Assembly (NCBI GenBank): GCA_905178155.1
Contig: CAJINV010000002.1
Coordinates: 9,249,412 to 9,313,411, forward strand
DNA: 64,000 nt
Reading direction: 5' to 3'
Source: Amoebophrya sp. A120
Taxonomy: Eukaryota; Protista; Dinoflagellata
The notes below the pieces were generated by a model. That model did not search any database. It had not been told where the DNA came from and was given only the letters and a program-made list of their open reading frames with translations. Both the position numbers and the translations under genes were made by a program. Positions 13,980 through 55,000 of the stretch are shown here, piece by piece. Numbering within the stretch: position 1 is the stretch's first letter; every line of letters starts with the position of its first letter.

Positions 13980-15751
13980 ATGAGCATGGCGCCAATTCTC
14001 CAACTGTTTCTAACAGAGATCGAGTCAGTGCGTGGTGGAATGATGGACCTGAACAACCAGTTGGTCGGACTGAAAGGCCAGGTCGGAAAACAAGTCGACG
14101 AAAGATTATCGAAGTTCGACGCCCGTTGGAACGCATATTTAAGCTGGCGTATTGCTCCCTAATACATAGGTCTGATTGACTTGTTGTCTTCATCACTTCA
14201 ATTTTTTTATCCTGCGTCATGGTCAGTTCTTGCGATAGCGATAGACAGAGACACTGAATGGCACTGCGGTTTCCGTCACGTATACTTTCCTTGGACATCA
14301 TAGTTGGGAAACAAGTGATGCATCTTTCAAGAAAATTGTTATCAGAAGGTCGGATCATGCACAAATTCAAATGCCGCTTTCAGGTGAATTAAGTGTCAAG
14401 GCGCATTTAGAGGAAAATGATGTGGACGTAGATGACCTGGCGGGCGGCATGGACAAACGAGCGTTAGCGTTACTGGACATGACATCTGAACAAGTAATCC
14501 TGTCTTTTTTGGACGAGATCGGCAGTGATATGGGCGCTTGCATTAACAATCCCAATTTCACGGAGACAGACCGCAACACTGCCGCAATGGTCAAGGAACT
14601 CGTGGTATGAAATGCAAAAATGTCTGGGTCTGGAAGAGTGTGAACTTGTCATGCAGGTTTTCCATGGCCCTTGAGGTCTGGAATGCGGGACCTAGCATGA
14701 CAGAGTCTGCCAGGTCTCTTTCATGCCTATCCTGCATGAGACACTCCCTCCCAACTTGGTCGAAAGTGGACAGCTTTTGGCACTCATGCAACACAGATTT
14801 TTGCATGATTCGGATTTAGCATGAGAAAGTGCAATCTTCCAGACCCAGACATTTTTACAGTTGATACGTGGCGGAGGACAAAAAGAACCTGACTTCGAAC
14901 ATCGGCTTGTTCTGTACCCGGCGTGGAATTGCACGTACGTCTTTCCGATTTTATTTCAAGCTGGAGCTCATTCAAAATTAATACAAATCTTTCAGGAGAA
15001 GAGAAGTTTTGATGTCAGTCTAGGATATTGATGGTCATTCACTCTCTACTTGAATTCACATACAATGTTTTTCTTGTTGTAACTCGCTTGACCATGTACA
15101 TGTTCATACAACTCACTGTGTGGGCGAAATTTTAGTTTTCGTATTTGTTGTGGAGGTTTCTTTTTCATAAAAACAGCCTTGCTGGACATTGCGGAGGATA
15201 TTCTCGACATCTTGAGTCACTACAAACCGCTGCTGGAAGCAAAGGCCAAGAATGTGATCGTTATCAGCTTCCAACTCCTGCACAGGTACAGTTTCACACA
15301 CAGAAAACTATGTTCCTTATACCCACGCCCCTCTGAGCATGCTGTGCTTGTTGACACAGCATCGACTAATGTCGACCTCGACGTAGAAGAACAAGAAGTA
15401 TGAGTGCGACTCATCCTGTTATATTTTTGGCGTGCTTCTTGTCCTTTTATATTTGTCTCCGATTTCCCTGTGTCTTGAGTACTCATGGTCATGCCCTCTT
15501 CCTGAAGCACCTACGCTCATGGCAGAGTAGCACGACACGACCGTAGTGCAGTGCTCATATATTTAAGTATTATTCAAGCTCAATCTTCACTCAGGATCCT
15601 GACCGAACTATACAACGGCGTTTCGCAGCCGGACGAGCAGTATGTAGCTCCGAAGAAAATGAGCCGGGCTCTGACCGGGCTAAACAAGTGGCTCGAGCAC
15701 GTGGCGAAGATGATGGGTAGTAGTGCGGCTCCTTCTCTCCCCCATGCTTAA
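13980..15751 (+). CDS. Probable multi-exon hypothetical gene; exon structure uncertain
   Basis: Several short protein-like segments bounded by GT/AG sites (e.g. tttcag|gtgaa ~14383, gcac|gtacgt ~14935, cacag|gtaca ~15286). One introner at 14606 interrupts a segment that rejoins in frame (KELV-AEDKK). Confidence 0.4.
14606..14866. mobile_element. Introner, family A (261 bp)
   Basis: TAT...ATA; TIR core aaaaatgtctgggtctggaag; direct repeat cgtgg/cgtgg; closely similar to 20707-20967. Confidence 0.9.
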
Positions 15752-16899
15752 ACGCTGGCGTTGGACAGCAGCACTGAGCCCTTTCCTCTCACAGTATGTT
15801 TCCTCTCACAGTTGTATCTTCATGCAGGTACAAGCGCGTGTGGCTGTCGGTGTGTGTAAGTCATGAATCTGAGTTTGTTGTAGCATAGCTATGAACGACA
15901 AGTCAAGCAACTAGTATCTCGATGCACACCGCAAAAGTGGTCCGTGTTATTGTGTGCCTAGTTGTTTGGTGCCTGTAGTTATCGTTGTAATCATGGCGCA
16001 CAAGTTTACTAGACCTAGAGCACAATGTTTATACCGGGTATACTAAATGACTGACATCTACTATCGATATTTATTTTTGTCTGATTTTTTGGACAGCGAT
16101 TGCGACACTGAGACATGCACATGCTCCTCACACTTCCACGGTCATAACAAATCCATCGCTCTGCTTTAGGCTTTACCTCCCTCTTCGAACCTTCGAATAT
16201 CAAAAGGACAATTACGCAGTTTCGCCAGACTGAGACTGTGTTCGCAGCTTCTACATGTTTATGGAGATAAAATCCAAATGGTGTTTCTTGGCTTCATAAT
16301 TGATTCCATACCTTCTGTACACAATGCCGCTTTTTCAAGCTGAGCAGATGCAACAGTATATCGTGTCCGTTTTGGATTATCCGAATCAAGTCAAGCACCG
16401 GCTGACGAAGGCACGGTCGGAGTGTTCTACTTGCGGCACTCCCCTACGGTGCTCCAGCGCATGCTAGTCTACGCCGCCCCCGCGACTCGACGGTGGCTTT
16501 GGGGGATTGCGTGTTCCTCCCGCGCGCAGGACAGGTCCCGCGATCTCCGTTGCCGCGCGACCTATTGCGGGCGGTAGCAGGACCGGGCCGGTTTTTAGGA
16601 GCAGGGCCGGCCTATTGCGGGCCGGTTACAAGCAGTAGCAGGATGTTGAGGCCGGCCCGTGTGTTGCCACGGCTTTGTTCACCGGGGCGGAGAACAGCAG
16701 CGCGGGGGGCAGCGAGGCGCAGGGTGCTACTGGATGCGCATGCGTTAGGCCTGCCACCTCCCCTCCTCCGAATCCATGCGGGTCATGCTCTGGCAGGCAG
16801 TGAGCCGGTTGGCGGTCTTTTGGGCGATGCTGCAGGCGCGCGAGCCCTTTCGCGTTCCTACGTGTGGGCGCAGGGCCCACCCCCACGGTGCCGGCCGCC

Positions 16900-17327: not shown

Positions 17328-18946
17328 ATGCCAGTCGGTCCCGTCCGTTACAAAGCGCCCTTGCCGGTGCGCTTCAAGGTGAACAAAGGGCGACTGTTGT
17401 TCCAGAAGGACCCAGAGGTGAAGATCGGGAAGTCCATCGTCGCGGCGCAGCAGCAATGTGTGACCGCCCACCACCTGGAAACCGCGAGGCGGATGCTGCG
17501 CAAGTCCCTCGGCAAGGACAAACCCTTTCTGATGAACGTGCACGCGACTTTTGCCCGGACGAAAAAGTCCCAGGGCGTGAAGATGGGAAAAGGGCAGGGA
17601 GCGATCAGCTACTTCGTCGCCCGCGTCTCCGCCGGCAAGCCGATCATCACGGTGCCGACTCTCGCGAAATTCCCGGGCGTGCCGGCGAACCTGTACACGC
17701 TGAAGTGCATTGTGTATCGAAAGCAAAAATCCCCCCTCCCCATATCGAAAACGAAATTTGTGATGCTGTATTTGAGGTCACAAATCAGATTTGTCTTGCT
17801 GGCGAGGACTGCAGGCCCATATCAGGCCTGAGTAGACAAGTTTTGGCCTAGGCGCTTCGCATGGCAGACGTCTACGCTGTAGGAGCAACAGCATAACAAA
17901 CCGCCTGTAGAATGTGGCGGAGCCTGTAGACTTGCCTTCATGCAGTACAGCGACGATTTGTGGTCTCAAATCTGCATCGCAAATTTTCAGAAGTGTCCCG
18001 GTTTGGTATGGGGAGGGGGGATTATTCCTCACAATATTGTAGACATCATGCCCATGGCCTGTCGGTTGCGGGAACAGTATAACCACTTTATCAGAATGAA
18101 AAATGCCCCCACCGCCACCCCCGAACTTGAAAGCATTTGTATTGCAAACCTTTCCAAATGAAACATTCGCCCTCTTGCACCTATCAGCATCACAGGTTTC
18201 CAACCGTGAATAGCAAAAATTTGTATTGCAAAAGACCCCAGCAAGAGCGGCGCTTGTCATGCAAGCGATGCGATACACGCCTAGACTCCGCATCAGAAAG
18301 ATTCATACTCGTTTCATGCATGACAAAAAGTTTTCATTTGGAAACTCCGCATCACAAATTTTTGCAATTTGAGGGGTGGGGGGCACTTTTCACTGTAATA
18401 CACTTTCCGGAGTTTCGAAACCCCAGACCCTGCATCGCGCTTGGCGGGAACCGGGTGGACGGGAAACAGTTCGAATCTTTGAAGGAAGTTGGAGGAGGAG
18501 CTTCTCCACCGGAAGTAGATGAATCACTGCGATTGCAGATTGAATCTGTGCCTTCGACGGAGGACGCCGAGGACGCTGCAGAAAGAACTACAACCGGAAG
18601 CGAAGATACAGGCACGAACCTAGCCGCTGTCGCGGATGAGGAAGATGTTCTTGCACCATCGAAAACTGATGCACTGGCACCAGCCGCAAGAACCGCAGTT
18701 CATGATCCGTCGGCATCTTCAACAAGGAGCCAAGATAACCTCGGCGTGGTGAAATTGAAACACCGCAGACATGTTTCCGAGCTTGGCCTTGAAAGTCAGC
18801 GGTACGGAGCTTCCACGCGAGGGCAATGCACGGAGGTGGCTCGCTTGAACTTGTCAAAAACTGCATCGCGATTGGCAGTTGGGGGAATAGGTGGAAGACT
18901 TTTTGCGGCCGCTGCGGGGAAAGAGCTGAGAAGAAGATTTTGTTGA
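17328..18946 (+). CDS. MRPL16: Mitochondrial/bacterial-type ribosomal protein uL16 with C-terminal extension, ~324 aa, split by two introners
   Basis: Motif KMGKGQGAISYFVARVSAGKPI matches the uL16 signature (RMGKGKG...VA.V..G.IL). Spliced length 975 nt = 325 codons. Confidence 0.85.
17715..18036. mobile_element. Introner, family D (322 bp)
   Basis: TAT...ATA; TIR core aatcccccctccccata; direct repeat ttgtg/ttgta; removal gives KCIV-DIMP; homologous to 54599-54920. Confidence 0.9.
18089..18400. mobile_element. Introner, family F (312 bp)
   Basis: TAT...ATA; TIR core tgaaaaatgcccccacc; direct repeat cactt/cactt; removal gives YNHF-PEF; homologous to 44754-45179. Confidence 0.9.
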
Positions 18947-19593: not shown

Positions 19594-22500
19594 ATGGGCA
19601 AGAAAAAGAAGGATAAGAAAGACAAAAAGAAGAAAGACAAGAAGAACAAAAAAGACAAGAAGGAGGACAAGGAGGAGAAAAAGGTCAAAAAGCCGGAGAA
19701 AAAGACCGAAAATGTCAAGAAGATGGAGAAGATTGAGGCGCGCAAGCGCCAGGAGTGGAAGGATCGTGGCGTTGCGCACTTGGGCCAGGTCCCGCTCTCC
19801 CAACGCGGACAGGGCAAGAAGGCGAGACTGGAGCGGTCCTCTGCGAAGGGCGTGCACGACGAGTACACGATCGGGTTCACGATTCACGAGGTCCGGGACA
19901 TGCTCACAAGTGACGGAAAGGCGATCGACCCGTTGGTGGTGGTGCGGTGCGCGGGGAACACGTATGTTTCCCAGAAAAAGGAGCACAAGCGCGACCACGT
20001 CTCCTTCGAGGAGTCCTTCACCTGGTCGGCGATGAAGATGATGCAGAGCCAGTTCGTAACTCAAGTAAAAACGTCCCCACCCCATAGTTGTCATGCAGAT
20101 TTGCAGTTGCAGCCAGATTTGTAATGCGCAACCCCATGAGCATGAGAGGCATTTCCAATCGCGTTTTTGGACTTTGTAACGCTGTAACCAGGATAAGTAG
20201 ATGGATTTGTGTTGCGGCTGTACTTCCTAAAGGGCACTACAATACAGAGACGAACTTGATGTCATTCTTGACTCCCACAGTCTGTTTATGTCATGCTTGT
20301 TGACCCCCAAAACTTCTCGATTTGTGTTGCGAGATCCCCATCTTGACTCTGGGGTGGGGACGTTTTTGCTCAGGATAGTTCGACGGCGCCTCGCTCCTGT
20401 TCGAGCTCCAGGCGGGGCGGATCTTCTGGGCGAACGAAGTGCTCGGGCGCGCTATTGTCAGTTGCCCGCTGGTTCGGTCCCGAAAGAACCACTCCTTCTC
20501 CCGCCGGTGGGTCGACATCCGCGACGGGATTCGGCACCGGGGCCGGATCTGCGTGTCCGCCACGTGCTACGCGTCCGGGGATCAAACAGGGATGGACAAG
20601 GAGGAAACGGAATCCGAAGGCGATATCGACGAGGCCATGGAGGATTTGAACAAGCTGGTGATCAACCAAGTGACCGACGCGTCGATCAAAGCGCAGATGA
20701 AGCTCCTATCAAATGTAAAAATGTCTGGGTCTGGAAGAGTGTAAACTTGTCATGCAGGTTTTCCATGACCCATGAGGTCTGGAATGCGGGCCCTAGCGTG
20801 ACAGAGTCTGTGAGGTCTCTGCCATGCCTATCCTGCATGAGAAACGCCCTCCAAACTTGGTCGAAAGTGGACAGCTTTTGGCACTCATGCAACACAGATT
20901 TCTGCATGATTCAAATTTAGCATGACGAGTTGCAATCTTCCAGACCCAGACACTTTTGCAATCCATAGCTCCGCCAGGCCTATTACGTCGTCGTGCAGGT
21001 TCACAGACTGGAGGGTCTTGGAGGTTTAGGTTTGAAATCGAGAAAATTCAATCCGTACGTGGAGGTTTCCTTCGCCGGCAGGCGTTTGCGGAGCAGCGTG
21101 TCGTTTCAAACGAAAAGTTGCAACTTCAACGAGGGTTTTCAGTTGCCCGTGATCACCCCGTTGTTTGATGATTCGATCGTGATCAAGATCAAAGACTACT
21201 TGATCGGGCGGAAGGACAAAGTGTTGATCCAGGGTATCCTGAGTAAAAACGTACCCACACCAGAGTCAGGATGAGGATTTTGCAACACAAACCTAGGAGT
21301 TTTGTGAGTCACGCATGACAAGTTGCGCTATGCAGTGTAGTGCAGGTTAGCAAGTGCAGCCGCATCACAGATTCATCTGCTCATCCTGTTCACAGCATCA
21401 CAAATTCCAAAACACGATTGGAAATGGCTCTCGTGGGGATGCGCGTCAAAAGTCTTCCTGTCTTTGCAAATCTGCATTACAACTCTGGTGTGTAAGTAGA
21501 CCATTAGCCTTCACAGATTGCATGAGCTTAGAGGCCCGACGTAGTCAGTGGCTTTCCTCGACGTTTTCAATTTTCACCTATTTCGTTCCTGTTTTGATTT
21601 TGCCTATTTCGAGTATCTAGATCGAGCCTCGGCGCCCTGTGTGCCTGGAGGCGCGTTTCACAAAAATGACCTGGCGAGGGCGCTTCGGGAAGACCCCGTC
21701 TGACCGTCTCACGCGCACACCTGAAGACGGTAGAGGAGTGGCTCGCGGGCTCGAGGCGGACGAGGAGACTAGCGGCCGCGATCCTGCCTCCGGCGCCGAA
21801 CCGGACTACGAAAGCAGACCAGGGCAGGAGTTCTGGAAAGGGTTAAGTTCACCATGCCGCCGGTCGATTAAGCAGATCGGGTAGGCTTCGGCAAACGGAC
21901 ACCAGCGCCAGGCTTCACGCGGATGCCCCCCAGCTCGCCCAAGCCAATAGCAACAAGCTCAATCGAGTCTTGTTCCCCAGCGCAATAGATGCGACGTAGG
22001 GGCGCACAATAGATGCGAGCTCAAGGCTTGGCATCGCTGGGGGAGATGGTGCGTTGCCCACGACACTGGAATACGCCCGCCGAAAGAACCGGCTGCGGTG
22101 TGGGCCGAGACCCTACGGGCACGCGCGAGGAGGTTACAGCGTCAGCCCTCGCAGCGACTTTCTCCCCGCGCTTGCAGCGCGTGGCCATGAAGTGACAGAG
22201 TCCTCCAGTGCTGCCTCTCTCGCATATCTTTCCTTCACTTGTCTGTGTAGATGAAGATGGACTTCGTCTTGCATAAAATATGTCCGCATAAAGAAGCCTC
22301 GCATTCTCCCCAGAGTAAGTAGCCGGAAGGTAGTTCGAAGGACATCTTAGGCATGCGCGCGTCGCTATCTGCCTCTGGTGTTTGCAGCCTTCTGAATAGT
22401 AACGTAATGGAGTTGTTGCCGCAGGTATCAGTATGGTAATTATAACTGAAGACCTGGACTTCTCCACTCATAGTGTTAGCGTGTTGGATGTGGGCGTGAA

Positions 22501-25500
22501 ACTGTTGGCAAAAGGACTAAGTGTTGCTGCGAAAAGTTAGGCTGGTTGTGAGACAAGTATGGTTGGTTGCGGATTTCGTATGGTTAGCCTTTCAGCTACG
22601 TTGCTGGATTTCGGGCCGGGTGTCCCTCGCTTTTCTTTATTCTCTATTTTCGATTACCGTATTCAACTTTTATGTCTTCCTGAAGGGCCGCATCCCTTCT
22701 AGTTATTTTCCTTCACCAGAGCTCCAGGTAGTTTATGCGTGATCCCTGGTTTTCCGACAGAGCACTGTCTTGCATGCGTCAGGAAAGCCGCCTTGGGTGC
22801 CACGGTACTTGAGGACGTGTTATATGTCTCGGGCGCACGTACATACTAGCCTGCAGGGACGGCGGAGCCGGAAAAAAATTGCGAAAAAGTGAGGAGTATG
22901 GCAGGTTGCGAAAGAGTATGGTAAGTGGCCGGGAGATGATGGTGATGGCACTTCGGTGTCCGCCTGACCTACCCCCCCTGCGTGTCAAGCCATCTGCGGC
23001 CTGGGGCAGAGGGGGGGGCAAAGTGTGCTGCAATTCCTTTAGCATTACAACTCTGGTGTGGGTACGTTTTTACTCAGGATACAGGGGCGGCTTTCCTTCT
23101 CCTCGCTTCGGAACACCACCCTGTCCCCGCGGTTCTTCAACTTCTACTCGTTCCCGCCCGAGGAGATCCACAACCCCGTGGAGTTCATCGCCCAAACGGG
23201 TATGCGGTCCGAACCGAACGAGTTTTTTGGCCGCCTGCTCCTGTCGGGCCGCGCGCAGATGCTGAGCAGGCTCGCGGAGTGCCAGGACGCAATGGTGATT
23301 CCCGGGGGCGGGCGCGTGGACGAGCCGCCGCAGACCCCAAGGAGGCTGATTTTCGACGTGTTCAAGGCGTCGGGGATGCCGGGAACGCAGATTTTCGTCA
23401 CGTTGAACTTCTGCGGCTATGCATTGCAAAAGTATCATACTAGTATAAATTGCATCACAAATTCTTTCAAGAAGAAAAATGGAATTTGTAATGCGGATTT
23501 ACCCAACAAGGGATATTTGTCATGCATGATAGCAATTACTACGAGTACGATACTTTTGCACAGGATAGCCGCCGAGTCTTGACCAGTACCAGCGCGGACC
23601 GGGTTTTACCGTCTGCGAAGTTGAAGGAGCGGGAGGCGGAGAAGAAAAAAGTCGAATTAGACGAGGACGAGCAGGTCGGGGAGCGGCACGCCGGAGACAG
23701 CAAGCGGGACGTGCTTGGCGAGGCGTTGAAGCAGGAGAAAAAGAAGAAAAAGATCATGGACGCGAACGACTTGACGGACAAAATTTCAAAGAAAAAATCT
23801 CGAAAGGGGCCGGAAATCGAGGACGAAACCACGTTTCAGCACCGGCTGGACGAGCTCGCGGACATCATGCCGCTGCCGGGCGAGTTTTTGTTCAAAGCGT
23901 CCGGCGGAAACATGGAGCTCCCCGTGATGGTCCCCGACGACGCAGACCAGCAGGCCGACGTGATCATCTCCGCGTACGCGCTGTTCCAGATGCCCGCCGC
24001 GGAATCCGCGGGAAAGAAGTTGTCCGACGCGGAGATGCGGAAATTCAAGCGGATCGGGTACCACCGGATGAAATACGGGCAGTTGCAAGACCACGAGAAA
24101 AACCCGGAGCGGCCGCCAATCTGGGTCCACTTACTCCCCATGCCACACTTACCGCCGTTGATCTCCCCCGGGGCCGTTTTGATCACGCTCGGCCACCGGG
24201 ACGGCATGAAGAGAAAAAAGAAGGAGGACGACGCGACGGCGAACGTCGAAGAGGAAATCAAAAAGCACGCACGGGGCATTGACTTGGTGCAGTTTGAGCT
24301 GCGGATGGGCCTGTGTTCCTGCCGCGACTTGGCCACACCCCGCGCGGACGGCAATCGGCCCAATCCGATCGTCGAGATCCAGTGCGGCGGGGAAACCATT
24401 CTGTCCGCGCAGAAGAAGCAAACGCACCAGCCGGTCTTTGTAGAAAGGTTGATTCTGGATGTGGAATTGCCCAAATCCCGAACCTCCAACCGCATGTCGC
24501 CGGAGCCGATCGTCCTCACGGTCTACGACACGCTGGAGCAGCCGGCGACCTTACAGGAGCTGATGCGCGCGATCTACCAGCCGAAGAACTTCATCTACGA
24601 GCAGGGGCGGGTGTTAGGCCAGAAGCTGTACCACGCGATGGCGGATTTGTTCCTTGGCAAGGACATGATGCGGGAGAAGGAAAAACAGATGAACATGACC
24701 ACGAAACTGCTTATCGGCCGGTGTTTAGCGAAGGTTGACGCGTTCACCAAACCCGGCCAGTCCACGAGGATCCGGCCGCAGTGGCTGGAACTGTATGGCG
24801 GGGTCAACAACCAGACGTGGGTCGGCGATATCCTGTTCTCCGCGGAACTCGTGCGCAAAGCAGACTCGAAGCTGATCAAGAAGACGCTGATGTCGCCGCC
24901 ACGAAAACCCTGTGTGGTCCAGTTCGCGTTTCGCAGTTTGAACGAGATTCCCCCCGTGGTGGCCGAGAAAAAGAACGCGGAGGGCGGAACCGACTTGAAC
25001 GTCCTGCAGCCGGTGCAGAAACCGACGCTCGTCATCGTTGTGCCCCAGTACAGCGAGCTCGCCACGTCCGGGATGGGCAACACGTTACGCGTCGACTGGG
25101 ACCGGACGCTCGCACCGAAACATGCGCGGAACACGCAGGATTTGACCAACCCGACCTGGGCCAGCGGAAACAGTTTGACGAATTTTGGCATGTTGGAGGT
25201 GCACGCTTTGTACGTCGAATTCCCGATTGACCCCATTTGGTGCCCGATCGCGGAATATGCACTGCAAAAGCATCGTACTAGTATAAATTGCATCACAAAT
25301 TTTTGGCTCAGCATGAAAAATTAAATTTGTCATGCTAAATTACCTAAGGAACCAGATTTGTCATGCTTGTCTGGCATTCATACGAGTACAATACTTTTGC
25401 ACAGGATACGGAAATCCACATGTACGACCGCCAGTACAACAACGTCTGGGTGGGTACGGGGTATCCTGAGGAAAAACGTCCCCACCCCATAGTTGTCATG

Positions 25501-28500
25501 CAAATCTGCATGCTGAAAATGTTTCTCATGCAAAGCCCCACAAGAAGCATTTTCTAGTCGTGTTTTGGCATTTGTGATGCTATGATCAGCATGATATGCT
25601 AGGTATGTGATGCTTCTGAACTACCTATTAACAGGATTACACTACGAGGACAAACTTGTCAAGCGACACAACCAAAGCCGGCTAATTTGTCTAGCAGATT
25701 TCCCATCTCGACTCTGGTGGGGGGACGTTTTTACTCAGGATACGGGGGCCATGAACCTGACCGCCTGCTTACCCTGGTGCGATTTCCCGGAGAGCGTGCT
25801 GAAATACGTAGAAGCGTCGAACTTGTACCAGATTCAGTACGCGAGTAACGAGGGTGCGGACGAGCTGGAAGTTTCCGACAGCGACGAGGACAAACGGCAG
25901 GCGCGGAGACAGCTGGCGAGGAACCGATTTTTGTTGGAGAAAGCGAAACAGAAGTACCTGTCCGAGGCGGAGAACGAGGGGGACATGAACCTGGAAGACG
26001 AGTCCGACATGGAAGACGTCGACTTCGTCGGCGACGCGCTCAAAGTGTTCGTCAAGTGGACCTACAAATGCCACGACGAGTACGACGATTATCTGAAGTC
26101 GCAGGGCCGGTTTCTATTGATGGAGGCGGAGGAGGAGTTGGAGCAGGCCAACGCGGAAATGGAAGAACGGAAGGTACCGCAAGCGAAAGTTCCAGTCAAA
26201 CCGAAGGATGGGAAAAAAGAGGCGGGAGCTTCGATTGTCGGGGAAACCCTCGCGAATGCTGCGGGGGCGTTGACGAAGTCGCTGACGAAGAGCGATGTTG
26301 CGAACGAGAAAGCGAAGAAGGAAAAGAAGGCGGGGAAAAAAAAGAAAAAGGAGGGGAAACACAAACTGAGTGATGACGGGGCTGGTGATAGCAGTGATAG
26401 TGGTAGGAACCCAGCTTCAGACTCAGCGGGGGGGATAAGAGAAGAAGACCAGCACTTCGGCCTGCAGGATACAGATGAGATGACTGATGCTGAGCACTAC
26501 AAGGCAATGGAAAAATTAGTGCAGCTACACTTGGACTCGAAGGTGACGACGAACAGTGCACTGAGTTCGCTGAACAACCAAGCAGAAGCAGGTCGTGTAG
26601 AAGGTGGGGTAGCGGCCGCGCCACGACCTAGTGAGTCACTGCTTCCGCCAGACGTCTCAACATCACATGCGCACGCAACTCCTGCAACAGCTACTGTCAC
26701 TGCATTAGGTCGCGAACTCTTCGAAAGCGTAAACAGAGGTGCTGCATCAAGAATTGACACTGAAGCAGTACCAGCCCCGGAGGTGGACAGCGACGAAGAA
26801 GATATTACAGTTACGAGTGGTGACAGCTCTGTTCTTGAAGAAGGCGAAGACGACGAGAGGCTTGGGGTTACTGCAGCCGCAGGAGGCGAAGATGGTGTGT
26901 TGGACCCCTACGAAGAAAAAGAAGACACCTACCGAAGGAAGATTCTGGATTTCCTCGTGAACGGCGGAGCCTGTCCCGATTTAGAAGAGGATGTTGACCT
27001 TTCGCCGTCCCCGCGGGCACAGGGGGACGATGTAGTTCTTTTGCAAGGCGGACAAACCGCAGAAGACGCGGAACACAGAACCGCGGCTGCGTTTTCTGAA
27101 GAAGATGAGAGCTTCAGTGGGCTTCTACAGAACAAAAACCGCGCGGCCACGAAGGTCAATGCACTGTCGCCGCCACCGCCTCCGCCTGTGCCGCCGCATT
27201 TGCTCATGAAAAAGCCGGTCAAGAACTTTGCAACGAGGGGCTCGCGACGAGCAGAAGAAAAAAGCTTCGGAACAACAGCTAAGGTTCTCAGCCTGCCCAG
27301 GGAGGAAAATATCAAAGCGGGAACTTTGAAAGTTGACAATAGTGATTTCCTTCTCGCTCAAGTCGCCGCCATCATCAACGACCAAGATGAAGCTACGGCA
27401 GCTTCTAAAGCGTCGCTCAGCATCGATCCGACCGCAGCAGCTCTCTCGCCCGCGGACCACGAAGTAGATCATGCCTCCGTTCCGCGGGAAAAGTTAAAGC
27501 AGGGAAGTGTGAAGAAGGTGGCCTTTCCCTCGGCGCGGAGAAAAGTAAGTGCGGCTATGAGCAACGCAGCGTCTTTTGAGGATGAGGATGCTGCTCTCGA
27601 CGATGATTTTCGAGAGCAAGGTGGCGATGCCGGTTCGAATTTCAAAGTGCCCTATCTGTTCTATCCTGACGATGATGTTGAAAACAACTGTGCGCCGGAA
27701 AATACCGAACCAGAAGCGCAAGGAGCCAAACTCTCCAAGGCCGGTGGCGACTCTAGTTCCCCTTCTGTCGCTGCGTCAGGAGAAGAAGAAATTTCCGAAG
27801 ATGACGAGAGCTCTGTTTTGCTCTCCTCGGAAAGTGACGAGAGTCAAGAGCTGAACACCAGCGACATTGACATTGCGGAGTTCCTTCCCTCCAGTCCCTC
27901 GAAGCCGCCGGTCCGGAATTTCAAAGTGAATGAGAACAGAAACAGAAGAATAATAGCTTCAGCATCCGAGGACGACGATATGGGGAATAATGTGCCATCA
28001 TCTTCCTCCAGCGACAGAAGCGGCAAAAGAAGCAGCTCCAGCGAAGATTTTTCAACGAGCAGCGAAGACGACAGCGTTTCCTCGGACGATTTTGAAAAAA
28101 TGGAAACGCTCCCGACGAAGGACGTCATCGCGCGGGATAAATGGCAGCTGTTCCGCGAGGCGTTCATGACGGACGGGGAAGAAAGGGAGAAGTTACTGCT
28201 CCAGTACGAAAAGTGTGGAACCGCTCCAAATCTGTTCAACAGCAGCGAGGACCTCGGGAAGGTGGGGTTTCGTGCTGCGGGTGGCGGTTTATTGGATGGA
28301 CCGTCTACTTCAAGGGTGAAACCCGCGCGCGGAGATTTTTCCGATATGTTCCAAGGCGGTCCTGAAACGTTTTCGGAAAGAAGGCATGATATTACGGTCG
28401 TGTCTAGCGATGAAGAGAAAGACGCCAGTCCGGATCTCCGGGAAGATCCAGGGAGACATCTTGACGCCGATCAAGCTGCAGACGGGCTTCTTCAAAATAA

Positions 28501-43876: not shown

Positions 43877-46800
43877 ATGCCGGGCGGCGTCGCCTCCGCC
43901 GTGCTTCAGTCCCTGAATGGGAGCACCACCGTGATGTCCAGTATCTTTTCCGGTTCTTCTTCCCCCGAGGAAGCGCATTTGCTCCAGCAAGCCGGCTTCC
44001 AGCCGTCGCTTCCCTACCACACTGGAGCACCGGCGGATGAGGTGCTGCCAGAAGCGGGAAATAACGCGGAGCATGAGCACGATTCCGGGGAACACGACGA
44101 GCACCACGAGGAGCATGAGGACCACGAACATGAGGACCATGAGCACGAAGACCACGATATCTTGTGTAAAAACGTCGACGCTCCAGCCTCCAGGCTCATC
44201 AAGATGGGCACTTTTCTAGACAAGCCAGCATTTACTTTTGGATATCGCGCGTAACAAGAAGTTTAGGCTCGCAGTGTCGTCGCATTTAGCTATTGTAGCT
44301 GCATCACAAATCGATCCCTTTATCCTGATTCTAGCATGACAAACTGGCAGACAGCATTACAGAATCCTCCTCATGTGCGCTGCGCATGAGAAACATCTTA
44401 CTAGGCTTGCAGATTTGCATGGCAAGTGTGGGGCGGGGACGATGACGTTTTTCTTCAGGATACAGGAGCACGAAGAGCACGTATCCCACGAAAAAAGTGT
44501 TACAGTTACACATTTGCAGTGAATTCAGCAACACAAATTTCTCTGCATGAGAGAGAAAACTTGTAATGCAGAAATCCTACGGGAAAACACCTACGAAACG
44601 AGGCTCCTATACATATCCGGCATGACAGAGCTTGTCTGTCTTGCTTGGCCTGCAACACAACGCGTAACTGTAACACTTTTTTCTTGCGATAGCACGAGGA
44701 CGAGCACCATTACGAGGAGGAGGAGGAGTTCCACGAAGAGCACGAGCCGGAGGTATTACAATGAAATATGCCCCCACCCCCGAACTTGGTAGCATTTGTA
44801 TTGCAAACCTTCCAAAAAGAAAGAGAAACATTCGCCCTCTTGCATCTAGCAGCATCACAGATTTATTCCAATCGTGAATAGAAGCAAAAATTTGTATTGT
44901 AAAAGACGCCAGCAAGAGCGGCGCTTGGCATGCAAGCGATGCGATATACGACTAGACTCTGCATCAGAAAGATTCATATTTCTTTCATGCATGAGAAAAA
45001 GTGTTCATTTGGAAACTCAAACTTCGCATCACACATTCTCGCGTCCGCCTGACTCCACGACCTGGTGGCCGAACCATGTGCGGTAAGGTGCCCTTACAGG
45101 TTATGTAGTGGCTTCGGTCGGTTTAGCATCACAAATTCTTGCAACTGTGGAGGGGGTGGGGGCATTTTTCACTGTAATAGGTGCAGGAAAACGAAAACGA
45201 AGCCGGTGGAGCAGGTGGTGACGACCAGCAGGACGCCGAGGCGGATGGTGCCGGCGCCGAGAACGAAAACGAGGTGGAAGTCGAGGGCGCGGAGGAAGAA
45301 ATCGTGGAGGAGCTGGGGGAGCACTTGTCTTCCGAGGTCACGGTGCTGAACGGTCTGCGGATCTGCTTCGAGCAAGCGAACGAGGAGATCAACGAACAGA
45401 CGAAGAAGATCTACAAGAGGGTGGAGTCGGTGGTGGAGGTCGTGAAGGGCGGTTTTGGCCTGTTTAGTGGCGGAAAGGGCAAGGCGGGCGCGGGGGGAAG
45501 CAAGACGAACAATGATGCGGAGAAGTCAACAGCGGCCACTACGAGTTCCACTTCTGCTGGTGCGCGCCAATATGAAGATGGCCACACGTCGTCCCCCTCG
45601 TCATTTGGTCCGAATAGAAGCAAGACAACGTCAAAGAAGAATAAAGGGGCAGAGAACAAGCCAAGTCGTGGATCCAGCTTTGTCACCCCAAAGAACAGCA
45701 GCACTACTCGCCGCGGCAAAAAGACGAGCGCTTCATCTCTCCGCGAAGGATCGCAAAAGGAGATGAAGCAGAAGAAAACAACCAAAATCGAGGTCCAGCA
45801 AATAAAATTTGAGAACATCAACTTTACAAAACCCATACCGCTGCCGATACCACGACTTCCCGGATCAATTTCTACCTCAGGCAGCCCAGCAGTTCCGTAT
45901 TTGCCAGTTGCACCGACGAGCAACTTCTCGACGGCGCAGCCGGTAGTTAAAAATGGGGGTTTTTCCGTGCTGATGAAAAACAAAAATCTGAAAATGAACC
46001 CGAACGTGATCGATGAAATAATCGCTCATCCGAAAAGCTGCAAAACAGATGACTCCGATTTAAACTCCTCAACGACCACGACCCTCCTGGAGCAGCAGGT
46101 GAATGAAGGGTCGTACTCCGATCATTTTGGGAGTGCGCCTAGCAAGAGGATCAAGGCGCCGGTCAACACCAGCGGTGTTTTTAGCGGGGACGAGGGGCAG
46201 TATGAGCAGGACTTCGAATTCGAGGACGCGCAGCACGATATCTACGAAGAAATCGTGGCTGACGGGGTATTGAATTTGAACGGTACCAGTACTGCGAAAA
46301 ATACGCAGGAAGCGATGCAGGAACAACTGAAGAGCAAGAAACAAATCCGAGCAGGAGCAGCTGCACCCTCTTCTCCTTCGGATCAACTGCATCTTCACGA
46401 ACAAGTTCTGGTCACGAACCTCATCACGCCCGAACTTTTGGAGGAATTGATCCCGATCGGAGATGAGTTGAAGTACCGGCAAAGTCTGTACGGTGGGAGT
46501 AGTTCTTGCAACCAAAACAACCAAACCTACGCGAACAGCAACGGCGAGCTGAGTCCCGGATATTGCAACACGATCTGGAGCGTGGATGAGGCGAATGCAG
46601 CGGCGCAGATTACTCAACTTCCGCCCCTGCCGTTTGTTAGCAAATCGAACACGGTGAAGCAGTTGAGCCCGGACTTGCAACCGATAGGCCACTTAGTACC
46701 GAGGGGAATAGCAAGCACGCCGGAAGTTGCTGCGATTTTAAAGGGCGATCATTCTGCGGCAAACGCAAAAGACGACAGCGGGCGGATCCATAATTCTTGC

Positions 46801-47724
46801 ACTGAATTAGTAAACCACCATAGCGTGCATGCAGACGCAAACTACCTCTTTCCGTCCTCTAACTCGAGCGACTGCGGTAGCACGAAGACCATCATCTTGA
46901 ATTCACCCGCTTCGTGCACAGGACGGGACTGGAACAATTCCACTGTCACGCGGGAAGAGCTGCACGACGACACTGAAATTGACCTGTATGCGGCTGACAG
47001 TGACGCAACGCCTATTGCATCACTTTGTGGGAAACTTGGAAATCTCCACTACGTGTCCCCCAGGCAAGAGGAGTTGCAAGTCGTCAACGGAGAACTGCTG
47101 CAGAACTACAATGGACGAGATGAACCTCCACGAGATGTTGAGCCACCATCTCCGGAAATCATATCCAGCAGCAGCAACATCAGGGAAATCAACGCCATTA
47201 CCACATACCCGTCTCCAAGTGCGAAAATGAAGGAACTATCGCGGAAGTTGTTTCCACCAGCGCAGTGTGATGATTTATTCTGCGAACAACAATCGTCTCC
47301 AGAAACGGTGGAACTACAACGGCAGCAAAACAACGAGGGGCTGAATGAAGTGGAGGAGGAACACGATGATCCCGAGACCCACCGGCCGCCGATCGTCGTG
47401 ATTTCTCCCTCAATGACGGAAGAAACCGACGCAAACTCCGATGTAGTTGCCGACAAGAAAAACAAACACCCTACGAAACTCGTCGGCCACTCACGACGCG
47501 TGCAACCCTGCCAGCAGAAGATCAGCCTCAAGAACCCGGAGTTAGAACAATTGGAATTGCAGCAACACGCACAGCAGCACACCACTCCGAAAGTAGTGCG
47601 ACCGCGGAATAGAAGCGCGCGGAAGATCAATACAAAGGAGAAATCCAAGATGGATAGGGGTTCCAAAAACTGGCAGGAGAAGACGGCCGAGGAACAAGCC
47701 GCTTCGGTAGTGGTGCTGTTTTAG
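43877..47724 (+). CDS. Hypothetical protein with His/Glu-rich N-terminal tract, ~963 aa, three clustered introners
   Basis: HE-rich repeat continues across three introners; spliced length 2892 nt = 964 codons; no recognisable domain. Confidence 0.7.
44158..44462. mobile_element. Introner, family B, diverged (305 bp)
   Basis: tatcttgtgtaaaaacgtc...gacgtttttcttcaggata; direct repeat cacga/cagga. Confidence 0.85.
44482..44691. mobile_element. Introner, family E (210 bp)
   Basis: TIR core gaaaaaagtgttacagttac; direct repeat gcacg/gcacg. Confidence 0.9.
44754..45179. mobile_element. Introner, family F, with short nested insertion (426 bp total)
   Basis: TIR tattaca.tgaaa.atgcccccacccc; direct repeat ggagg/ggtgc (2 mismatches); homologous to 18089-18400. 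Confidence 0.85.
45043..45126 (+). other. Nested 84-bp GT...AG insertion inside introner
   Basis: Starts gtccgc, ends ggtttag. gcatcacacattctcgc (45026-45042) recurs as gcatcacaaattcttgc (45126-45142). Absent from the sister copy at 18089. Confidence 0.75.
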
Positions 47725-49023: not shown

Positions 49024-52000
49024 ATGACACTAACTGCCGATAGCAAGAACGCAGCAACAGCCAGCACTGCTCTGGTTGTGCCGTCTGCAGACCAGATGAT
49101 GAGGCTACCGTCGCTGCCGCATGAGCAGCTGATGGAGAAGAAGCAGCAATTTTTTCTTGAAACTGCGGAGAAAATCGCCAACGTCAAGCTGCCCGCCAAC
49201 GCTGCGGCGGCTTCGAGTGCGAAGAAGAGTAGCGCGAAGGCGAGCAAGAATGTTGACCCTTTCAACGTGAAAAATGGAAAAGAAGAGAAAGACACTTCCT
49301 ATCAAATCGCTGCATCGCCCGAGACCGTTGGGAATCTCGCTTTGTTCTTCCACATTTTGAAAAACCAGATCCTCACCCCGGACTTGCTCGTCGACAAGAT
49401 CGCGACTTCCGTCGCCACGACCGCAATGTCGTCCTCGGAACACCAGCCTGGTACAACAGCTAGTAAGCCGAAACCGAAGTCCAAGGCCGCCGCGAAGAAC
49501 AACAAGAATTCTGCCTGCAGCGCGGAAAACTACAACGCTTTGGCGTTCAAAACGGAAAAGGCGCAGGCGATCGTGAACTTTTTGGTGAAGGAGGTCAAGG
49601 CGAGCAAGAGCTTCGAGCAGTCGAGCATTCTGAAGCGGGTAAACATCGTGGAGGGAAAGGAGGACGAAGACCAGGCTTTGCTCGCGCTGAAAGACGTTGC
49701 AGGAGAGCAGGAAGATGGCAGTGACGGCGAGGAGATCCTCGATTCTCCGAACAAGAAGTTCAAGCCGCGCGGAAAATCCAAGGAAACAGAGATGGAAGTG
49801 GAGCAAGAGGGGTTTATGAACTGCAAAAGTATCGTACTCGTACTCGTAGTTATTGCAGTCATGCATTACAAATCTTTTACTTTTTCGTTAGGTAAATCCG
49901 CATGACAAATTTTATTTCTCATGCTGAGAAAATTTGTAATGCATTTATACGAGTGCGATACTTTTGCACAGGATAGGGCTTGCTGCTCAGCAAAACGACC
50001 AGAACGTCCTGTCCAACATGTTCAACGCGGACGAAGAACAGGCTTTGGAAAAGGAAAACTTCGATCTCTTTTTCGATCTCAAGCTCGAATATTTAAGCTT
50101 TCTCCTGCTGCAGAAGGAAGACGTTTCGGAAAATAAGTCGAAGACGGTAGCCACGACGTCCCAAAAGGGGAAGAAAACCCCGCGCTCCCAACCGGCGGCA
50201 GAACAAGCAGAGTCGAAAAAACGCACGATCATCTTCCACACGGGCGCGGGCGTCTCGACCGCCGCCGAGATTCCGGATTTTCGCGGGCCGGAGGGCGTGT
50301 GGACCGCGTATCCTGCGCAAAAACGTTCCCACCCCATAGTCAAGTTGGGGAATCTGCTAGACAAATCAACCAGCTTTGGCTGCTGCGCATGACAAGTCTG
50401 GCCTCGTAGTGTAATCCTGTTTGGCTTGTTTAGCAGCATTACAGATTTGGCATAGCGTGCGTATTGGAGCATAACAAATTCAAAAACACGACTAGAAAAC
50501 GCTGCTCATGGGGCTCCGCATGAGAAACATTTTCAGCATGAGCGTGTAGATTTGCATTACAACTATGGAGTGGGGACGTTTTTACTCAGGATACCGCGCG
50601 GACGAAGAACTTCGCACCTCCCGAGACTGCGACTTCCAAGTACTTTAAGCTGAAATCCGCGAACAAGGAAAGTACGGATGAGGAGGAGGACTACGATTTT
50701 GAGAACATCGAATTCAACGTCGACGAGGAAACGGGGGAGATGAAGGTGGTTGAGGTTGACCCGCTGGAATTCGAGAAGCGGAAGGCGGACAAGATCCAGG
50801 CGAAGATTGACTTGAAGGATATAACCCGCTCAGGTGTTACAATCTCAAACGTTACAATAGAATCTGGAATTTGTGTTGCAAGAAGTGCACAATCTACCCT
50901 ACTCCCACAGGATTGCGCATGACAAGTTCTGGAGTCCCAATCCGCACTACAATCTGGCGAAATTTGTATTGCAAAAAGTGGAACGCTGTCCGAGTCTGTC
51001 ATGTTGGTAATGCAAGACAAATCTCAGATTCTATTGTAACGTTTGAGATTGTAACACCTGAGCAGGTTATAGAGGAGCGGATTACGAAGATGAAGTTTAA
51101 CCCGCCCCTGCTGTTCGAACACGCCAACCCGACGAAGGCGCACTGGGTGATCCGCGTGCTGAACGACCAGAAGCTGGTCGCCCACGTGGTCACGCAGAAC
51201 TGTGATGGGCTCCACAGCCGGACCGGGTTGCGCGGAAAGGAAGTGATCTCGGAGTTGCACGGCAACGCGTTCTTGGAAGAGTGTCACACCTGCGGGGAGT
51301 CGTTCTGGCGCGACTTTGACACGTGCAGGTACCGTAGTGCGCGGTTTTTGTTGCGAAACTTGGTTTTTTTTCTTTTCGTTGCGAAAGTAATGTGAGATGC
51401 GGACGTCGATGTTGAAGGTAGTTTGTTTCGAAAAAAGAATGCACCCGAAAATGCACGAAGTTGCAATACACATTAACCCAGAATCCACGGCATTTACGAC
51501 AACTCCGCGAACACGAAGCCGAACCAGCGCGACCGCGGCACCGGCCGCTTGTGCGACTACTGCCACACGGGCATTCTGCAGGACACGATTTCGTACTTTG
51601 GGGAGAAGCTGCGCGACTTCGAGAACGCGTTCAAGGTTTGCAAACCGGCCATGCTGGCCGGCGCGTTCAAGAACTCGTCGAAAATGAAGTTTGTCGCGAA
51701 TGAAGGAAACAAAAATGAGAAAATCAAAGACACCGTCGTCGTTGACACCAGCTCCCAAACCTTTGCAGAGCACGTGCACATTGTGCTGGGCACTTCCCTC
51801 GCCGTCAAACCCGCAAACACGCTGCCGAACTACGGCCCGCTGTGCTTCATCGTTTCGAACAAGCAAACGCACAAGGACAAGCACAACTGCAAGATTGGTG
51901 GAATTCTGGTGAAGACCTCGTGCGACTTATCGCAAGAAAAAACTGTTTATTCACTGTAAACTTGTAATGCAGAAACTGTATCTGAGAAGTGTTTGTCATG

Positions 52001-55000
52001 CTACACATGCAAGACGCTAGGTTTTCCCTGTCTTTTCCCTGAGGAATCTCGCATGGCAAATTTTCCCTGGGATGTAGAACAAACTTGTGATGCAAAACTT
52101 GCAAAATCCTTACAGTGAGACACTTTTTTCGTACGATACGACTTCTTCTGCGTGAAGCTGTGGGAGAAGGTGTTGGAGAAGAAAATCTTGGAAACGAAGG
52201 ACGGTAGCACGCAGAAAAAGCTCGACTTCGAGAACTTGAACGAACAGGTGACGTTTTACGAGGTGATCGCGGAAAATGAGTCCCTGAAACTGAACTACAA
52301 CTTCTTCAACACCCTGATTCTGTTCAACGAGAACGAACCCTACTTGCGCCCGGGCTTTGAGCAGCCGGGGTTCAAGCGCGCACCGCCGGTGATCGTGAAA
52401 AAGGAGGAGAAGGAGCAGCTCTCTATCGCGGACAAGACCACCGAAGCTGCTGGTGCTTCTGCAGACACGACCATGAAGCAAGAACCCCAGAAGGTCGCCG
52501 AGGCCGAACAAGTTGCGACATCGAGTGTGGCCGTGTCTACTCAGCAACAGCCCTCGTGGGCCGAGAAGCAGAACGATGAGGAGGAGAAGCGGAAACAGCG
52601 GTTCGCGGAACTCCAGCGGCGGCACGAGGAGGCGCGGGCGCGCCAGCGTGCGGTGGCCCTGAAGAAGGAGCTGGATCTGAAAAAGCAGGCGCTGGCGGTC
52701 TACCGCTACCCGACCGCGGTCCAGTTCAAGAAGTCCTGGGACAAGAACCACTTGAAGGCGCTGCGCATCGTCCCGCTGTTCATGATGAGCGAGGAGAAGC
52801 GCGGGTACACGCAGGAGGGGAAGTGCGACGAGCTGTTCGTGATGTGCATGCAGGAACTGACCATCAACGGCAAATCCCTGCTGCCCACCATCGACCCGGC
52901 CACCGGCTGGATCCAGCTCGAGGTAAAGGAAGACGAGAACGGGACGGAGTTGAGCGCGAAGAACTTGTTCGGCTTGCCGAACGGCAGCTTCAAACTGAAC
53001 TTCGCGAACGGACAGAACGCGGCAATTGCTTCCGCGAGTTCTTCCGCGACCAGCATGAGTGCCAAGGCGCACTTCACCCCGCGGTCCAGCTCCGCGTCGA
53101 GTTCCGCCTGCGGGGACAACGACATCAAGATGCTGTTGTCCGATGACGAAAACGGGTCGTCCGCTGCGTCCGCCTCCGGCGTTTCGAGCTCCACCACCGC
53201 GAACTCGAACAAACAGAAGATCGACCTGTCCGACTTGTCCAACATCACCGTGCAGTACGACTTCCTGCGTCCCGGCGAGAAGCGGCTGCGGTCCGGGAAT
53301 TCCTCCTGCTCCTCCGCGGCGAGCGCGAGTTCCCACTCGGACGGCGACGGCATGGATTCCGGCGAGGATGACCCCTACCACTACAAATTCTCCGGCGGCG
53401 AGCGAGTCTTGCGGTCGGACGGGACGCCGGTGGACTTGGAGCAGTTGCAGAAGGCCATGGAAGAAGGTGTACCGTTCGGAACTACCGCTGCGAACAAGGG
53501 GGCCGATGAAACTGCGAAGACTGGTGCCACTGCGGCCGCTGCCGCGACCCCGAATAATAAACCGGTGAACAAGACCGCTGTGTCCACCGTCCTTGCCGCG
53601 GCGAAGCCGAAGGCGATGATGAAAAAGCCGGTGCAGAACGAGGTGAACCACTTCAAGGCCGTGGTGCTGGATTTTGACCAGACGCTGTCCAAAATCCACC
53701 TGTACAAGGTGCTCACCGACCCGCGCGAGGGCTTCGACTGCAGCGACGAGGCGGATCAGCTGAACGCTTTGCACGCGGATTTCCACAAAGATCTCTTCAA
53801 GCGGTGCTTCGGGGACGACAACGACCAAAAGGAGCTGGCCGAGTGGCTGATCGCGCTGTCGGGTCTGGTATGCATTGCAAATATGTCTGGGTCTGGAAGG
53901 ATGCGAACTTGTGATGCGCATTTCACAACACAGACAAATCTCTCATCCATGCATAGGTAGCAAAAGGTGCCCATTCCCTGCCACCAAAATAGGGGATTTG
54001 TCGTGCGGATTAAGCAATGCGGAAGCTTCTCGAAATCTGTGATGCTAGGGCTTTCTTGACAGACATTGTGTGTCATGCAAAAACAGCAAGACTCTTCCAG
54101 ACCCAGACACTTTTGCATTTGATATCTGGTCCCGGGGGTCTTTGTCTGCTCGTTCGGCTACCACACGGTCTGCTTCCAGATGCTGGACCAGTTGCTGAAG
54201 AAGTTCAACTCCTCCGCGGAGAACGTTTTCCGCGGGATCTTCGGGAAGGGAAACCTCGTCAACGTCCCGGGAAGTCGGGAGACCAAGGCGGACACGATCT
54301 TCTTCAAGATCATGCAGCAAAAACTGGATGCGCGGTTTCTGTTCGTTGACGACGACGAGAAGAACTGCATGTCGGTGGCCAGCGAAAAGTACTTCTGGAA
54401 CGCGGACGCGTTCTGCCCGGGCGGAAGTTTGAGCGGTGAGACGAGTGTAGTTGCAGCAGGGGAGCATCAGAACAAGGGCCTGACCAAGGCGGATCTCAAG
54501 ATCCTGACCGAGTACATCATCCACAACACTTTGACTGACAACAGTGCCGAGTTCGACTGGGAAACGCCGCGGTTCAAGGCGTTGGCGGAGGGGGAGAGTA
54601 TCAAGAAGAAAAATCCCCCCTCCCCATATCGAAAACGAAATTTGTGATGCTGTATTTGAGTACACAAATCCGATTTGTCTTCCTGGAGAGGACTGCAGAC
54701 CCATATCAAGCCTGAGTAGAGAGGCTTTGACCTGGGCGCTTGGCATGAAAAACGTCCGCGCTGTAGGCTCAACAGCATGACAAACCGCCTGGAGAATGCG
54801 GCGGAGCCTGTGGAGTTGCCTTCATGCAACACAGAGACGATTTGTGGTCACAAATCAGCAATACAAATTTTCGAAAGCGTACCTGTTCAATATGGGGAGG
54901 GGGGATTTTTCCTTTTGATAGAGAGGGTCGGGTCGTTTGTCTGCCTGCGGAAGGTTCCGGAGAAACCTGCAGAAAGTGGTGCGCCCGCTGCTGGTGATGA

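Follow-up and report, generated by a model that had tools for sequence, protein, structure and literature searches.

The closest described relatives of the elements studied here are the introners of the dinoflagellate Amoebophrya sp. A120, for which Farhat et al. (2021), in the available text, reported inverted repeats starting in TAT, direct repeats and a removal supported by RNA-seq; according to the same text, more than 60% of the A120 introns are removed without GT-AG (PMC7789003). The window analyzed here is a stretch of 64,000 nucleotides of the A120 genome itself (contig CAJINV010000002.1), in which 26 elements with TAT...ATA ends, inverted repeats and a flanking 5-bp direct repeat lie in 14606-54920. 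A first-pass annotation, made from the letters of the window, had taken them for non-canonical introns of a class known from Amoebophrya. The observation was confirmed as real and correctly read, and the class is indeed an already known one. What is added here is a probable fixed register, in which the intron would open 1 nt ahead of TAT and close 4 nt past ATA (-1/+4), whatever the orientation of the element and without regard to GT-AG.

A scan for complementary TAT...ATA ends with a flanking 5-bp repeat, together with looser scans that added the remaining elements, TAA and TAG starts among them, recovered the 26 annotated elements and their termini: TAT starts in 24, TAA in one (20057), TAG in one (36378), and an ATA end in 26/26. 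Under the strict threshold (at least 15/20 complementary ends and at least 4/5 of the repeat), 22 TAT..ATA pairs were found in the window, compared to a mean of 0.05 in 20 dinucleotide shuffles. The flanking repeat was perfect in 18/26 and had 1-2 mismatches in 8/26, the same on recount as in the annotation. The ungapped inverted repeats measured 15-61 bp; of the annotated range of 15-54 bp, the lower bound held and the upper one was too low. The ends consist of TAT, about 7 variable bases and then an A run, and among the 50 ends of 25 elements T1 was present in 50, A2 in 50, T3 in 49 and A at positions 11-14 in 46-48. Element sequence accounts for 22% of the interval 14606-54920. Removal of the element plus 5 nt left an open frame at 26/26 junctions, including 4,251 codons across 13 elements, while the retained element broke the frame at 26/26. 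The restored frames gave matches to Ribosomal_L16, C2/ferlin and SIR2, so that this claim of the annotation also stood.

The interiors fell into 9 groups, six multi-copy families and three single copies, where about 8 families had been annotated. The interiors are not wholly unrelated: an 8-nt motif (TGT-V-W-TGC, on either strand) is found at least twice in 25/26 window elements and in 185/194 elements of other loci. The density of this motif, which was picked after inspection of the window, was 10.8 per kb inside the elements compared to 0.25 per kb outside. It recurs about four times per element across unrelated families and is a candidate site for a transposase or a splicing factor. The longest ATG frame within any element was 88 aa. 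The three interior frames of element 6 had no match in Pfam, and a scan of the window with Rfam gave no match.

The removal of the elements was followed in runs X3, X4, X6 and X7, which come from one study, consist of assembled contigs and carry a guessed RNA label. These runs behave as RNA, with the GT-AG intron skipped and the intergenic bin empty. Contigs lose rare forms, and minor splice variants would go unseen. An exact loss of element plus 5 nt was found in RNA for 14/26 elements; elements 1, 4-13 and 16 lie outside complete RNA junctions and are excluded from this count. The elements are given below with their direct repeats.

Element 1, 14606..14866, 261 bp, repeat CGTGG/CGTGG, family with 5, 12, 15 and 25; frame open after removal.
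Element 2, 17715..18036, 322 bp, repeat TTGTG/TTGTA, family with 11 and 26; removed in RNA with element 3.
Element 3, 18089..18400, 312 bp, repeat CACTT, family with 20; removed in RNA with element 2.
Element 4, 20057..20377, 321 bp, TAA start, repeat GTTCG, family with 6, 9, 18 and 22.
Element 5, 20707..20967, 261 bp, repeat GCTCC; open frame after removal.
Element 6, 21235..23081, 1847 bp, inverted repeat 32/32, repeat CAGGG; family copy with an insert.
Element 7, 23418..23567, 150 bp, repeat GCGGC/GCCGC, family with 8 and 21.
Element 8, 25256..25408, 153 bp, repeat CGGAA; open frame after removal.
Element 9, 25462..25742, 281 bp, repeat CGGGG; orientation opposite to 22.
Element 10, 31424..31632, 209 bp, repeat TCGCG, family with 13, 14, 19 and 24.
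Element 11, 32854..33580, 727 bp, repeat GAAGA; orientation opposite to 2 and 26, with an insert.
Element 12, 33875..34132, 258 bp, repeat CGGCC; orientation opposite to 25.
Element 13, 35052..35259, 208 bp, repeat CATGC; an RNA contig piece starts at 35260 with 77 letters preceding, not counted as verified.
Element 14, 35607..35815, 209 bp, repeat GGTCA; removed in RNA with element 15.
Element 15, 35881..36132, 252 bp, inverted repeat 30/30, repeat GTATA; removed in RNA with element 14.
Element 16, 36378..36636, 259 bp, TAG start, repeat GGTGT/GGTTT; single copy in the window, not among the 14.
Element 17, 41849..42083, 235 bp, repeat CGGGA/CTGGA; RNA joint 41845>42086 skips 240 nt in 3/4 runs.
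Element 18, 44158..44462, 305 bp, repeat CACGA/CAGGA; removed in RNA with element 19.
Element 19, 44482..44691, 210 bp, repeat GCACG; terminal in-frame GT..AG unused.
Element 20, 44754..45179, 426 bp, repeat GGAGG/GGTGC; joint 44751>45183 skips 431 nt in 3/4 runs; short insert.
Element 21, 49815..49975, 161 bp, repeat GGGTT/GGGCT; joint 49813>49980 skips 166 nt in 1/4 runs; orientation opposite to 7 and 8.
Element 22, 50309..50593, 285 bp, repeat CCGCG; RNA skips 290 nt in 2/4 runs.
Element 23, 50820..51071, 252 bp, inverted repeat 57/61, repeat AAGGA/GAGGA; RNA skips 257 nt in 3/4 runs.
Element 24, 51928..52138, 211 bp, repeat CGACT; RNA skips 216 nt in 3/4 runs.
Element 25, 53869..54124, 256 bp, repeat TCTGG; RNA skips 261 nt in 3/4 runs.
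Element 26, 54599..54920, 322 bp, repeat GAGAG; RNA skips 327 nt in 3/4 runs; terminal in-frame GT..AG unused.

In 41100-55700, 10/10 elements were skipped by exactly their length plus 5, each in one to three of the four RNA runs. Elements 18 and 19 were lost at the joint 44157>44691 with 8 letters between, corresponding to 525 nt, in 2/4 runs. The RNA junctions of elements 2-16 were read from contig pieces: an X3 contig lacked 644 nt, the sum for elements 2 and 3, and an X3 contig lacked 471 nt, the sum for elements 14 and 15 (element plus 5 nt each). Moreover, one 5,259-nt RNA contig of a sirtuin gene lost introners and a GT-AG intron together. Run X7 had cover in 8/30 bins and no joint was seen in it. 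The raw RNA runs X11 and X12 had 19 and 7 reads placed, respectively, nearly all on elements with other flanks; the exons were uncovered, and neither junctions nor empty sites came from these runs. Very short exons between neighboring introners (44468-44481 and 35816-35880) are kept in the mRNA, and elements 18 and 19 are 19 bp apart. A joint inside element 25 (53917>54093), present in one shallow contig only, was treated as a paralogue artefact.

Run X1 showed a flat depth of about 45 outside the elements and was taken as DNA. Of its contig pieces, 6/8 of those listed run across a border between exon and element, and one contains the whole of element 16; 15 of its 1,259 joints are listed, and rare empty sites may exist. 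Element 2 is transcribed, because a contig identical to its interior (0 differences) occurs in an RNA run in which the neighboring bins are empty. This contig, 17779-18039, stops 1 nt before the predicted 3' splice site and carries 3 further letters not matching the genome; its end could be an excised-intron end, a circle junction or a paralogue switch.

Perfect repeats hide the position of the cut, and imperfect repeats reveal it. The base retained in the mRNA is that of the 5' copy at position 1 of the repeat in element 23, position 2 in element 17, position 3 in elements 18 and 20, and position 4 in elements 21 and 16, and that of the 3' copy at position 5 in elements 20 and 2. Five of the informative repeats were read from listed joints, and elements 2 and 16 were assigned from contig piece ends; at element 16 the RNA piece stops at 36377 without mismatch, which points to position 4 from the 5' copy. 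Element 7 has the sole imperfect repeat without RNA cover, and the register count refers to the other seven. The joint of element 20 allows the offsets -2 and -1 only, that of element 21 allows -1, 0 and +1, and together they therefore leave only the offset -1. The register -1/+4 fits 7/7 informative imperfect repeats, and the neighboring offsets fit 5/7. These results are suggestive, and not proof, of one cut common to all elements, placed 1 nt ahead of TAT and 4 nt past ATA.

At -1/+4, 11/26 introns begin with GT, 1/26 ends with AG and 0/26 do both, and U+2 and A+3 are present in 26/26. An in-frame GT..AG pair stands right at the termini in six elements (4, 19, 20 and 26 at -1/+1; 14 and 16 at -4/+1), within 6 nt of the ends in 10/26 and within 20 nt in 21/26. 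The terminal pair was bypassed by RNA in 4/4 distinguishable cases, namely elements 19, 20 and 26 and, judging from its contig piece end, element 16; the GT..AG reading of element 14 has the same length and is indistinguishable, and element 4 is outside the RNA junctions. The nine top A120 motifs in Table S4, as far as the paper is available, all start with N-T, in agreement with the offset -1, and in strain A25 the repeat starts with TTA and the top motifs with TT (PMC7789003), which would again give U+2 and A+3. The motifs of Table S4 were downgraded as independent support for the register, because most of them could equally arise from the offset -4 and from the preferences of the aligner.

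Most of what the first-pass annotation had predicted for the transcripts was borne out. Its figure of about 20/26 elements without an in-frame terminal GT-AG agrees with the six found, the junctions removed exactly element plus 5 nt at all 14 elements with complete RNA junctions, the canonical terminal pairs went unused in the distinguishable cases, and the elements are retained in the DNA run X1. It had further proposed a mechanism that reads the terminal stem and the ends. The removal without GT-AG is upheld, and a reading of the RNA stem, rather than of the two terminal sequences, was not supported: the excess of G-U over A-C expected in the inverted repeats under RNA-level stem selection was absent in the window (25:36, p = 0.20) and in the locus copies (41:44, p = 0.83).

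A pattern derived from the commonest element end matched at least 144 loci, all of them JACKZZ01 contigs of one assembly; among the listed loci L001-L144 there was no exon-length match to the window. The viral matches of the pattern, L145 and L146, were attributed to chance. At the listed JACKZZ01 loci, a caller that disregarded the direct repeat, and that found 20/26 in the window with no false call, yielded 194 elements. The 5-bp duplication was perfect in 161 of them, 4/5 in 19, 3/5 in 6 and lower in 8, and the other duplication lengths (3, 4, 6-9 bp) occurred in at most 2/194, which is chance level. After 46 elements were dropped for a repeat below 3/5 or a short flank and 81 for coding flanks that were not confident, 67 had confident coding flanks on both sides. 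One 5-nt copy was needed for the frame in 58/67, and 9 misfit. The orientation relative to the coding strand was assignable in 48/58, with 25 the same and 23 opposite, and there was no polarity of the ends relative to transcription in the 58 oriented copies. Full-length relatives of 21/26 window elements were present at the fetched loci, and the summed DNA depth on element bins was up to 3e5 compared to about 45 outside. The elements are short and have inverted ends, a fixed-length duplication and no coding capacity, as in MITEs (miniature transposable elements bounded by inverted repeats). Judged by their sequence, they are likely to be non-autonomous DNA transposons of this kind, moved in trans.

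The three long elements, 6, 11 and 20, are otherwise typical members of their families into which foreign sequence has been inserted, 40-55 nt from the right end (21474-23060, 33127-33545 and 45026-45140). The insert of element 6, of about 1.55 kb, lies between 19-nt direct repeats (21474, 23042), that of element 11 between 14-nt direct repeats (33127, 33532), and that of element 20 has a shorter imperfect repeat. The insert of element 11 is about 70% like sequence in L006 and in L041; in L041 this sequence belongs to an element of 631 bp that has an internal repeat of 13 nt. The inserts may be a second mobile element targeting introners, or a gap-repair capture. In addition, the end variants TATG- and TATC- are swapped relative to the interior between 14606-14866 and 20707-20967 and between 49815-49975 and 23418-23567, as if the interior had been flipped by recombination between the inverted repeats.

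The reading that we prefer, and to which we give an even chance, is that the elements are removed by a divergent, AG-blind spliceosome of the U2 type that requires neither G+1 nor a terminal AG. A transposase acting in trans would insert the element in either orientation and duplicate 5 bp of the exon. The transcript would then lose the element plus 5 nt with the protein unchanged, as was seen for 14/26. The intron would extend from 1 nt before TAT to 4 nt after ATA (exon / N-UAU ... AUA-NNNN / exon), which is compatible with the data and not proven. U+2 and A+3 are as in the canonical GUA donor, and the 5' site may be recognized as N-U-A; for the 3' site, the distance from the terminal motif or stem would be decisive, and the paired ends may hold both sites together. 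The symmetry of the ends would allow splicing in both orientations. The bases left free at -1/+4 are those that the normal spliceosome checks when docking the 3' site. In the available text on A120, nearly all spliceosomal proteins as well as U2, U4, U5 and U6 are kept and U1 was not found (PMC7789003), and Amoebophrya Kv, with GT-AG introns, has U1 (PMC12005148). Fritillaria offers an earlier example of a U2 spliceosome that has adapted to do without AG.

Several observations weigh against such a spliceosome, the single register and the mobilization in trans. No lariat, branch point or factor was seen in the assembled contigs, and the canonical introns gave no clear peak of a fixed branch-to-AG spacing. 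A spliceosome with any AG preference should use the canonical GT..AG pairs that were bypassed in 4/4 cases, and U+2 and A+3 can equally be seen as nothing more than the tip of the transposon. The duplications showed no selection toward G+1 or a terminal AG, with a flat composition in the 58 oriented copies, and among position-5 mismatches G was in the intron copy in 2/2 window cases and 0/3 locus cases. The register rests on 7 sites, two of them from piece ends, and if the offsets were random some common register would still fit with a probability of 0.125. All RNA is from one study, in contigs and under a guessed label. The N-T starts in Table S4 could reflect aligner placement within the repeat, and public annotations of these sites place the borders variably. 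Finally, no transposase was found in the scanned window frames, and Farhat et al. (2021), in the available text, found none in A120 (PMC7789003).

A separate, non-spliceosomal machine is a possible alternative that we entertain tentatively. As has been proposed for the nonconventional introns of euglenids, a structure-guided endonuclease and an RNA ligase would act on the paired ends, and the cleavage would be staggered, 1 nt beyond the stem on the 5' side and 4 nt beyond it on the 3' side. The symmetric signals would serve both orientations, and the bypass of terminal GT-AG in 4/4 cases, without G+1 or AG preference, would be expected. The terminal three pairs had a mean pairing probability of at least 0.78 in 11/15 folded elements, but were predicted to be open or weak in 4/15 (2, 3, 16 and 24), which are spliced or apparently so. 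The 3' overhang would be 3 nt longer than the 5' one, like the Euglena code N3CDG...CHG-N5-6 in the available text (PMC12501133), and euglenid introns are described, in the part of the source at hand, as released in circles and not lariats (PMC11282704). However, no candidate enzyme is known, the lack of a G-U over A-C excess gives no support to pairing selection at the RNA level, and a near-complete A120 spliceosome without detected U1 suits a changed spliceosome. It is likewise a tentative possibility that A120 has a second, non-spliceosomal splicing system with a purely geometric code, by which any TAT...ATA hairpin, whatever its orientation, is cleaved 1 nt ahead of its start and 4 nt past its end, and GT-AG is overridden even where a pair is available. 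If true, this code would be convergent with that of Euglena, and insertions of these transposons would all leave the protein unchanged.

The removal could also be exact in length with a cut whose place in the 5-bp repeat differs between elements, a relaxed spliceosome taking any nearby site, which we regard as rather improbable. The legend of Fig. 3 in Farhat et al., in the available text, gives variable sites with an unknown border (PMC7789003), the annotated sites are mixed within one A120 family, and the chance of a common register (0.125) also leaves room for sliding. However, one offset fits 7/7 informative sites, elements 20 and 21 leave -1 alone, better canonical sites were passed over, and aligners are expected to yield mixed annotation at perfect repeats. 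It is scarcely credible that the elements are cut from the DNA of the transcribing stage, like the internal eliminated sequences of ciliates and with no RNA splicing: one repeat copy is left, as in the product of precise transposon excision, and X1 is of unstated life stage with 15 of 1,259 joints listed, but its flat-depth contigs cross exon-element borders in 6/8 listed pieces and span element 16, locus-specific element RNA is present, and the repeat left at element 20, a chimera that takes positions 1-4 from one copy and position 5 from the second, indicates a cut inside the repeat and not at the transposon tips.

If genome-wide, the -1/+4 register would give the exact splice sites, indicate where a branch or a circle junction may lie and correct annotated intron borders. 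An element that is always removed with one duplication, whatever the target or orientation, would explain how transposons can fill exons.

The introner host genes are all on the + strand, and are listed with the canonical intron of the sirtuin gene.

17328..18946, + strand, uL16-family ribosomal protein gene, 324 aa predicted, elements 2-3; Ribosomal_L16 PF00252, E 5e-14.
19594..38008 (ends approximate), + strand, ferlin-like multi-C2 gene, elements 4-16; 4,251-codon frame after removal, C2 by Pfam.
41142..43331, + strand, gene with a weak leucine-rich-repeat match by Pfam, element 17.
43877..47724, + strand, gene without assigned family, elements 18-20; RNA and open frame.
49024..55652, + strand, sirtuin-domain protein gene, 1652 aa, elements 21-26; SIR2 by Pfam, one 5,259-nt RNA contig.
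51329..51481, + strand, canonical GT-AG intron of 153 nt, from the transcript that also carries elements 21-26; RNA joint in 3/4 runs.

An exon of the sirtuin gene matched a single protein, at 100% identity. Removal of elements 21-26 and the one GT-AG intron gave this protein, CAD7935626.1 / GSA120T00010295001 of Amoebophrya sp. A120 over 1652/1652 residues, and the elements of the sirtuin gene are thus already annotated as introns. The A120 annotation was derived from A120 transcriptomes and may share data with the RNA runs used, so that this agreement is not independent support. At the protein level, the AT5 orthologue of the sirtuin protein is gap-free at the site of element 24 and has a one-residue gap near element 25. 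The uL16 protein aligned with two homologues without a gap at junction 2. The ferlin-like protein matched myoferlin (E 2.7e-5), dysferlin and otoferlin in the PDB, and protein searches with its sequence found nothing. A plausible short frame, with 120 codons upstream and 36 downstream, is the putative host of element 1.

The 5' part of the uL16 gene is duplicated 4.5 kb upstream (12765-12888 and 17318-17441, 124 bp, 98%), as is a stretch upstream of the gene (12603-12656 and 17107-17163), and the duplicate is apparently a truncated copy. No complete element was called in 1-14600 and 55000-64000, although long + strand frames, reaching about 1,000 codons, lie there. A long frame at 56466-59522 has a metallo-beta-lactamase-fold match (PF00753, E 1.6e-5), and its product is probably a glyoxalase II-like hydrolase.

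Compared with known systems, the elements at -1/+4 do not, as a set, show the GT/GC donor and AG acceptor of a U2-type intron. Euglenids and Amoebophrya are unrelated lineages. The nonconventional introns of euglenids have, in the available descriptions, inverted ends, direct repeats at the junctions and free terminal dinucleotides, as here (PMC12501133, PMC11282704). Their cut sites have a fixed offset from the stem and a longer 3' overhang, as is probable here; however, the code in Euglena reads N3CDG...CHG-N5-6 and then a purine, and the present ends, N1-UAU...AUA-N4 with repeats of 15-61 bp, do not follow it (PMC12501133). The introns of Fritillaria borealis, as far as the sources are available, are MITE-derived with inverted repeats and duplications, and are removed without GT-AG beside canonical introns, as here. 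Their preferred ends are AG-AC and AG-AT, whereas the introns of this locus are free in their first base and their last four, and Fritillaria has kept U1 and duplicated U2AF (PMC11282704, PMC13326754).

Within A120, Gozashti et al. (2025) list DNA-type families with terminal inverted repeats of about 149, 208, 252-261, 278 and 319-322 bp, which match the present families in size, and mostly non-canonical annotated sites, as here; one A120 family of that study, number 38, is integrase-like. In the available part of that paper, automated duplication calls are 2-5 bp with mixed donors and acceptors, and no fixed register appears in 19/58 A120 rows (PMC12130899). A literature search found no paper resolving the register or the mechanism in A120; the figure logos of Farhat et al. 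(3, 4, S19-S25) may already show the register. The available text of Farhat et al. concerns the same organism and describes, as here, the same TAT, seven variable bases and run of three or more A, direct repeats (the legend of Fig. S19 has an example of 5 bp) and no internal transposase. It gives repeats of 3-5 nt with a variable or unknown border, whereas here the repeat is 5 bp almost without exception and one register fits; the bypassed terminal canonical pairs and the 8-nt motif common to the families go beyond that text (PMC7789003). Every tested defining feature of the A120 introners was present at this locus, namely host, end pattern, direct repeat, repetition in the genome and removal without GT-AG.

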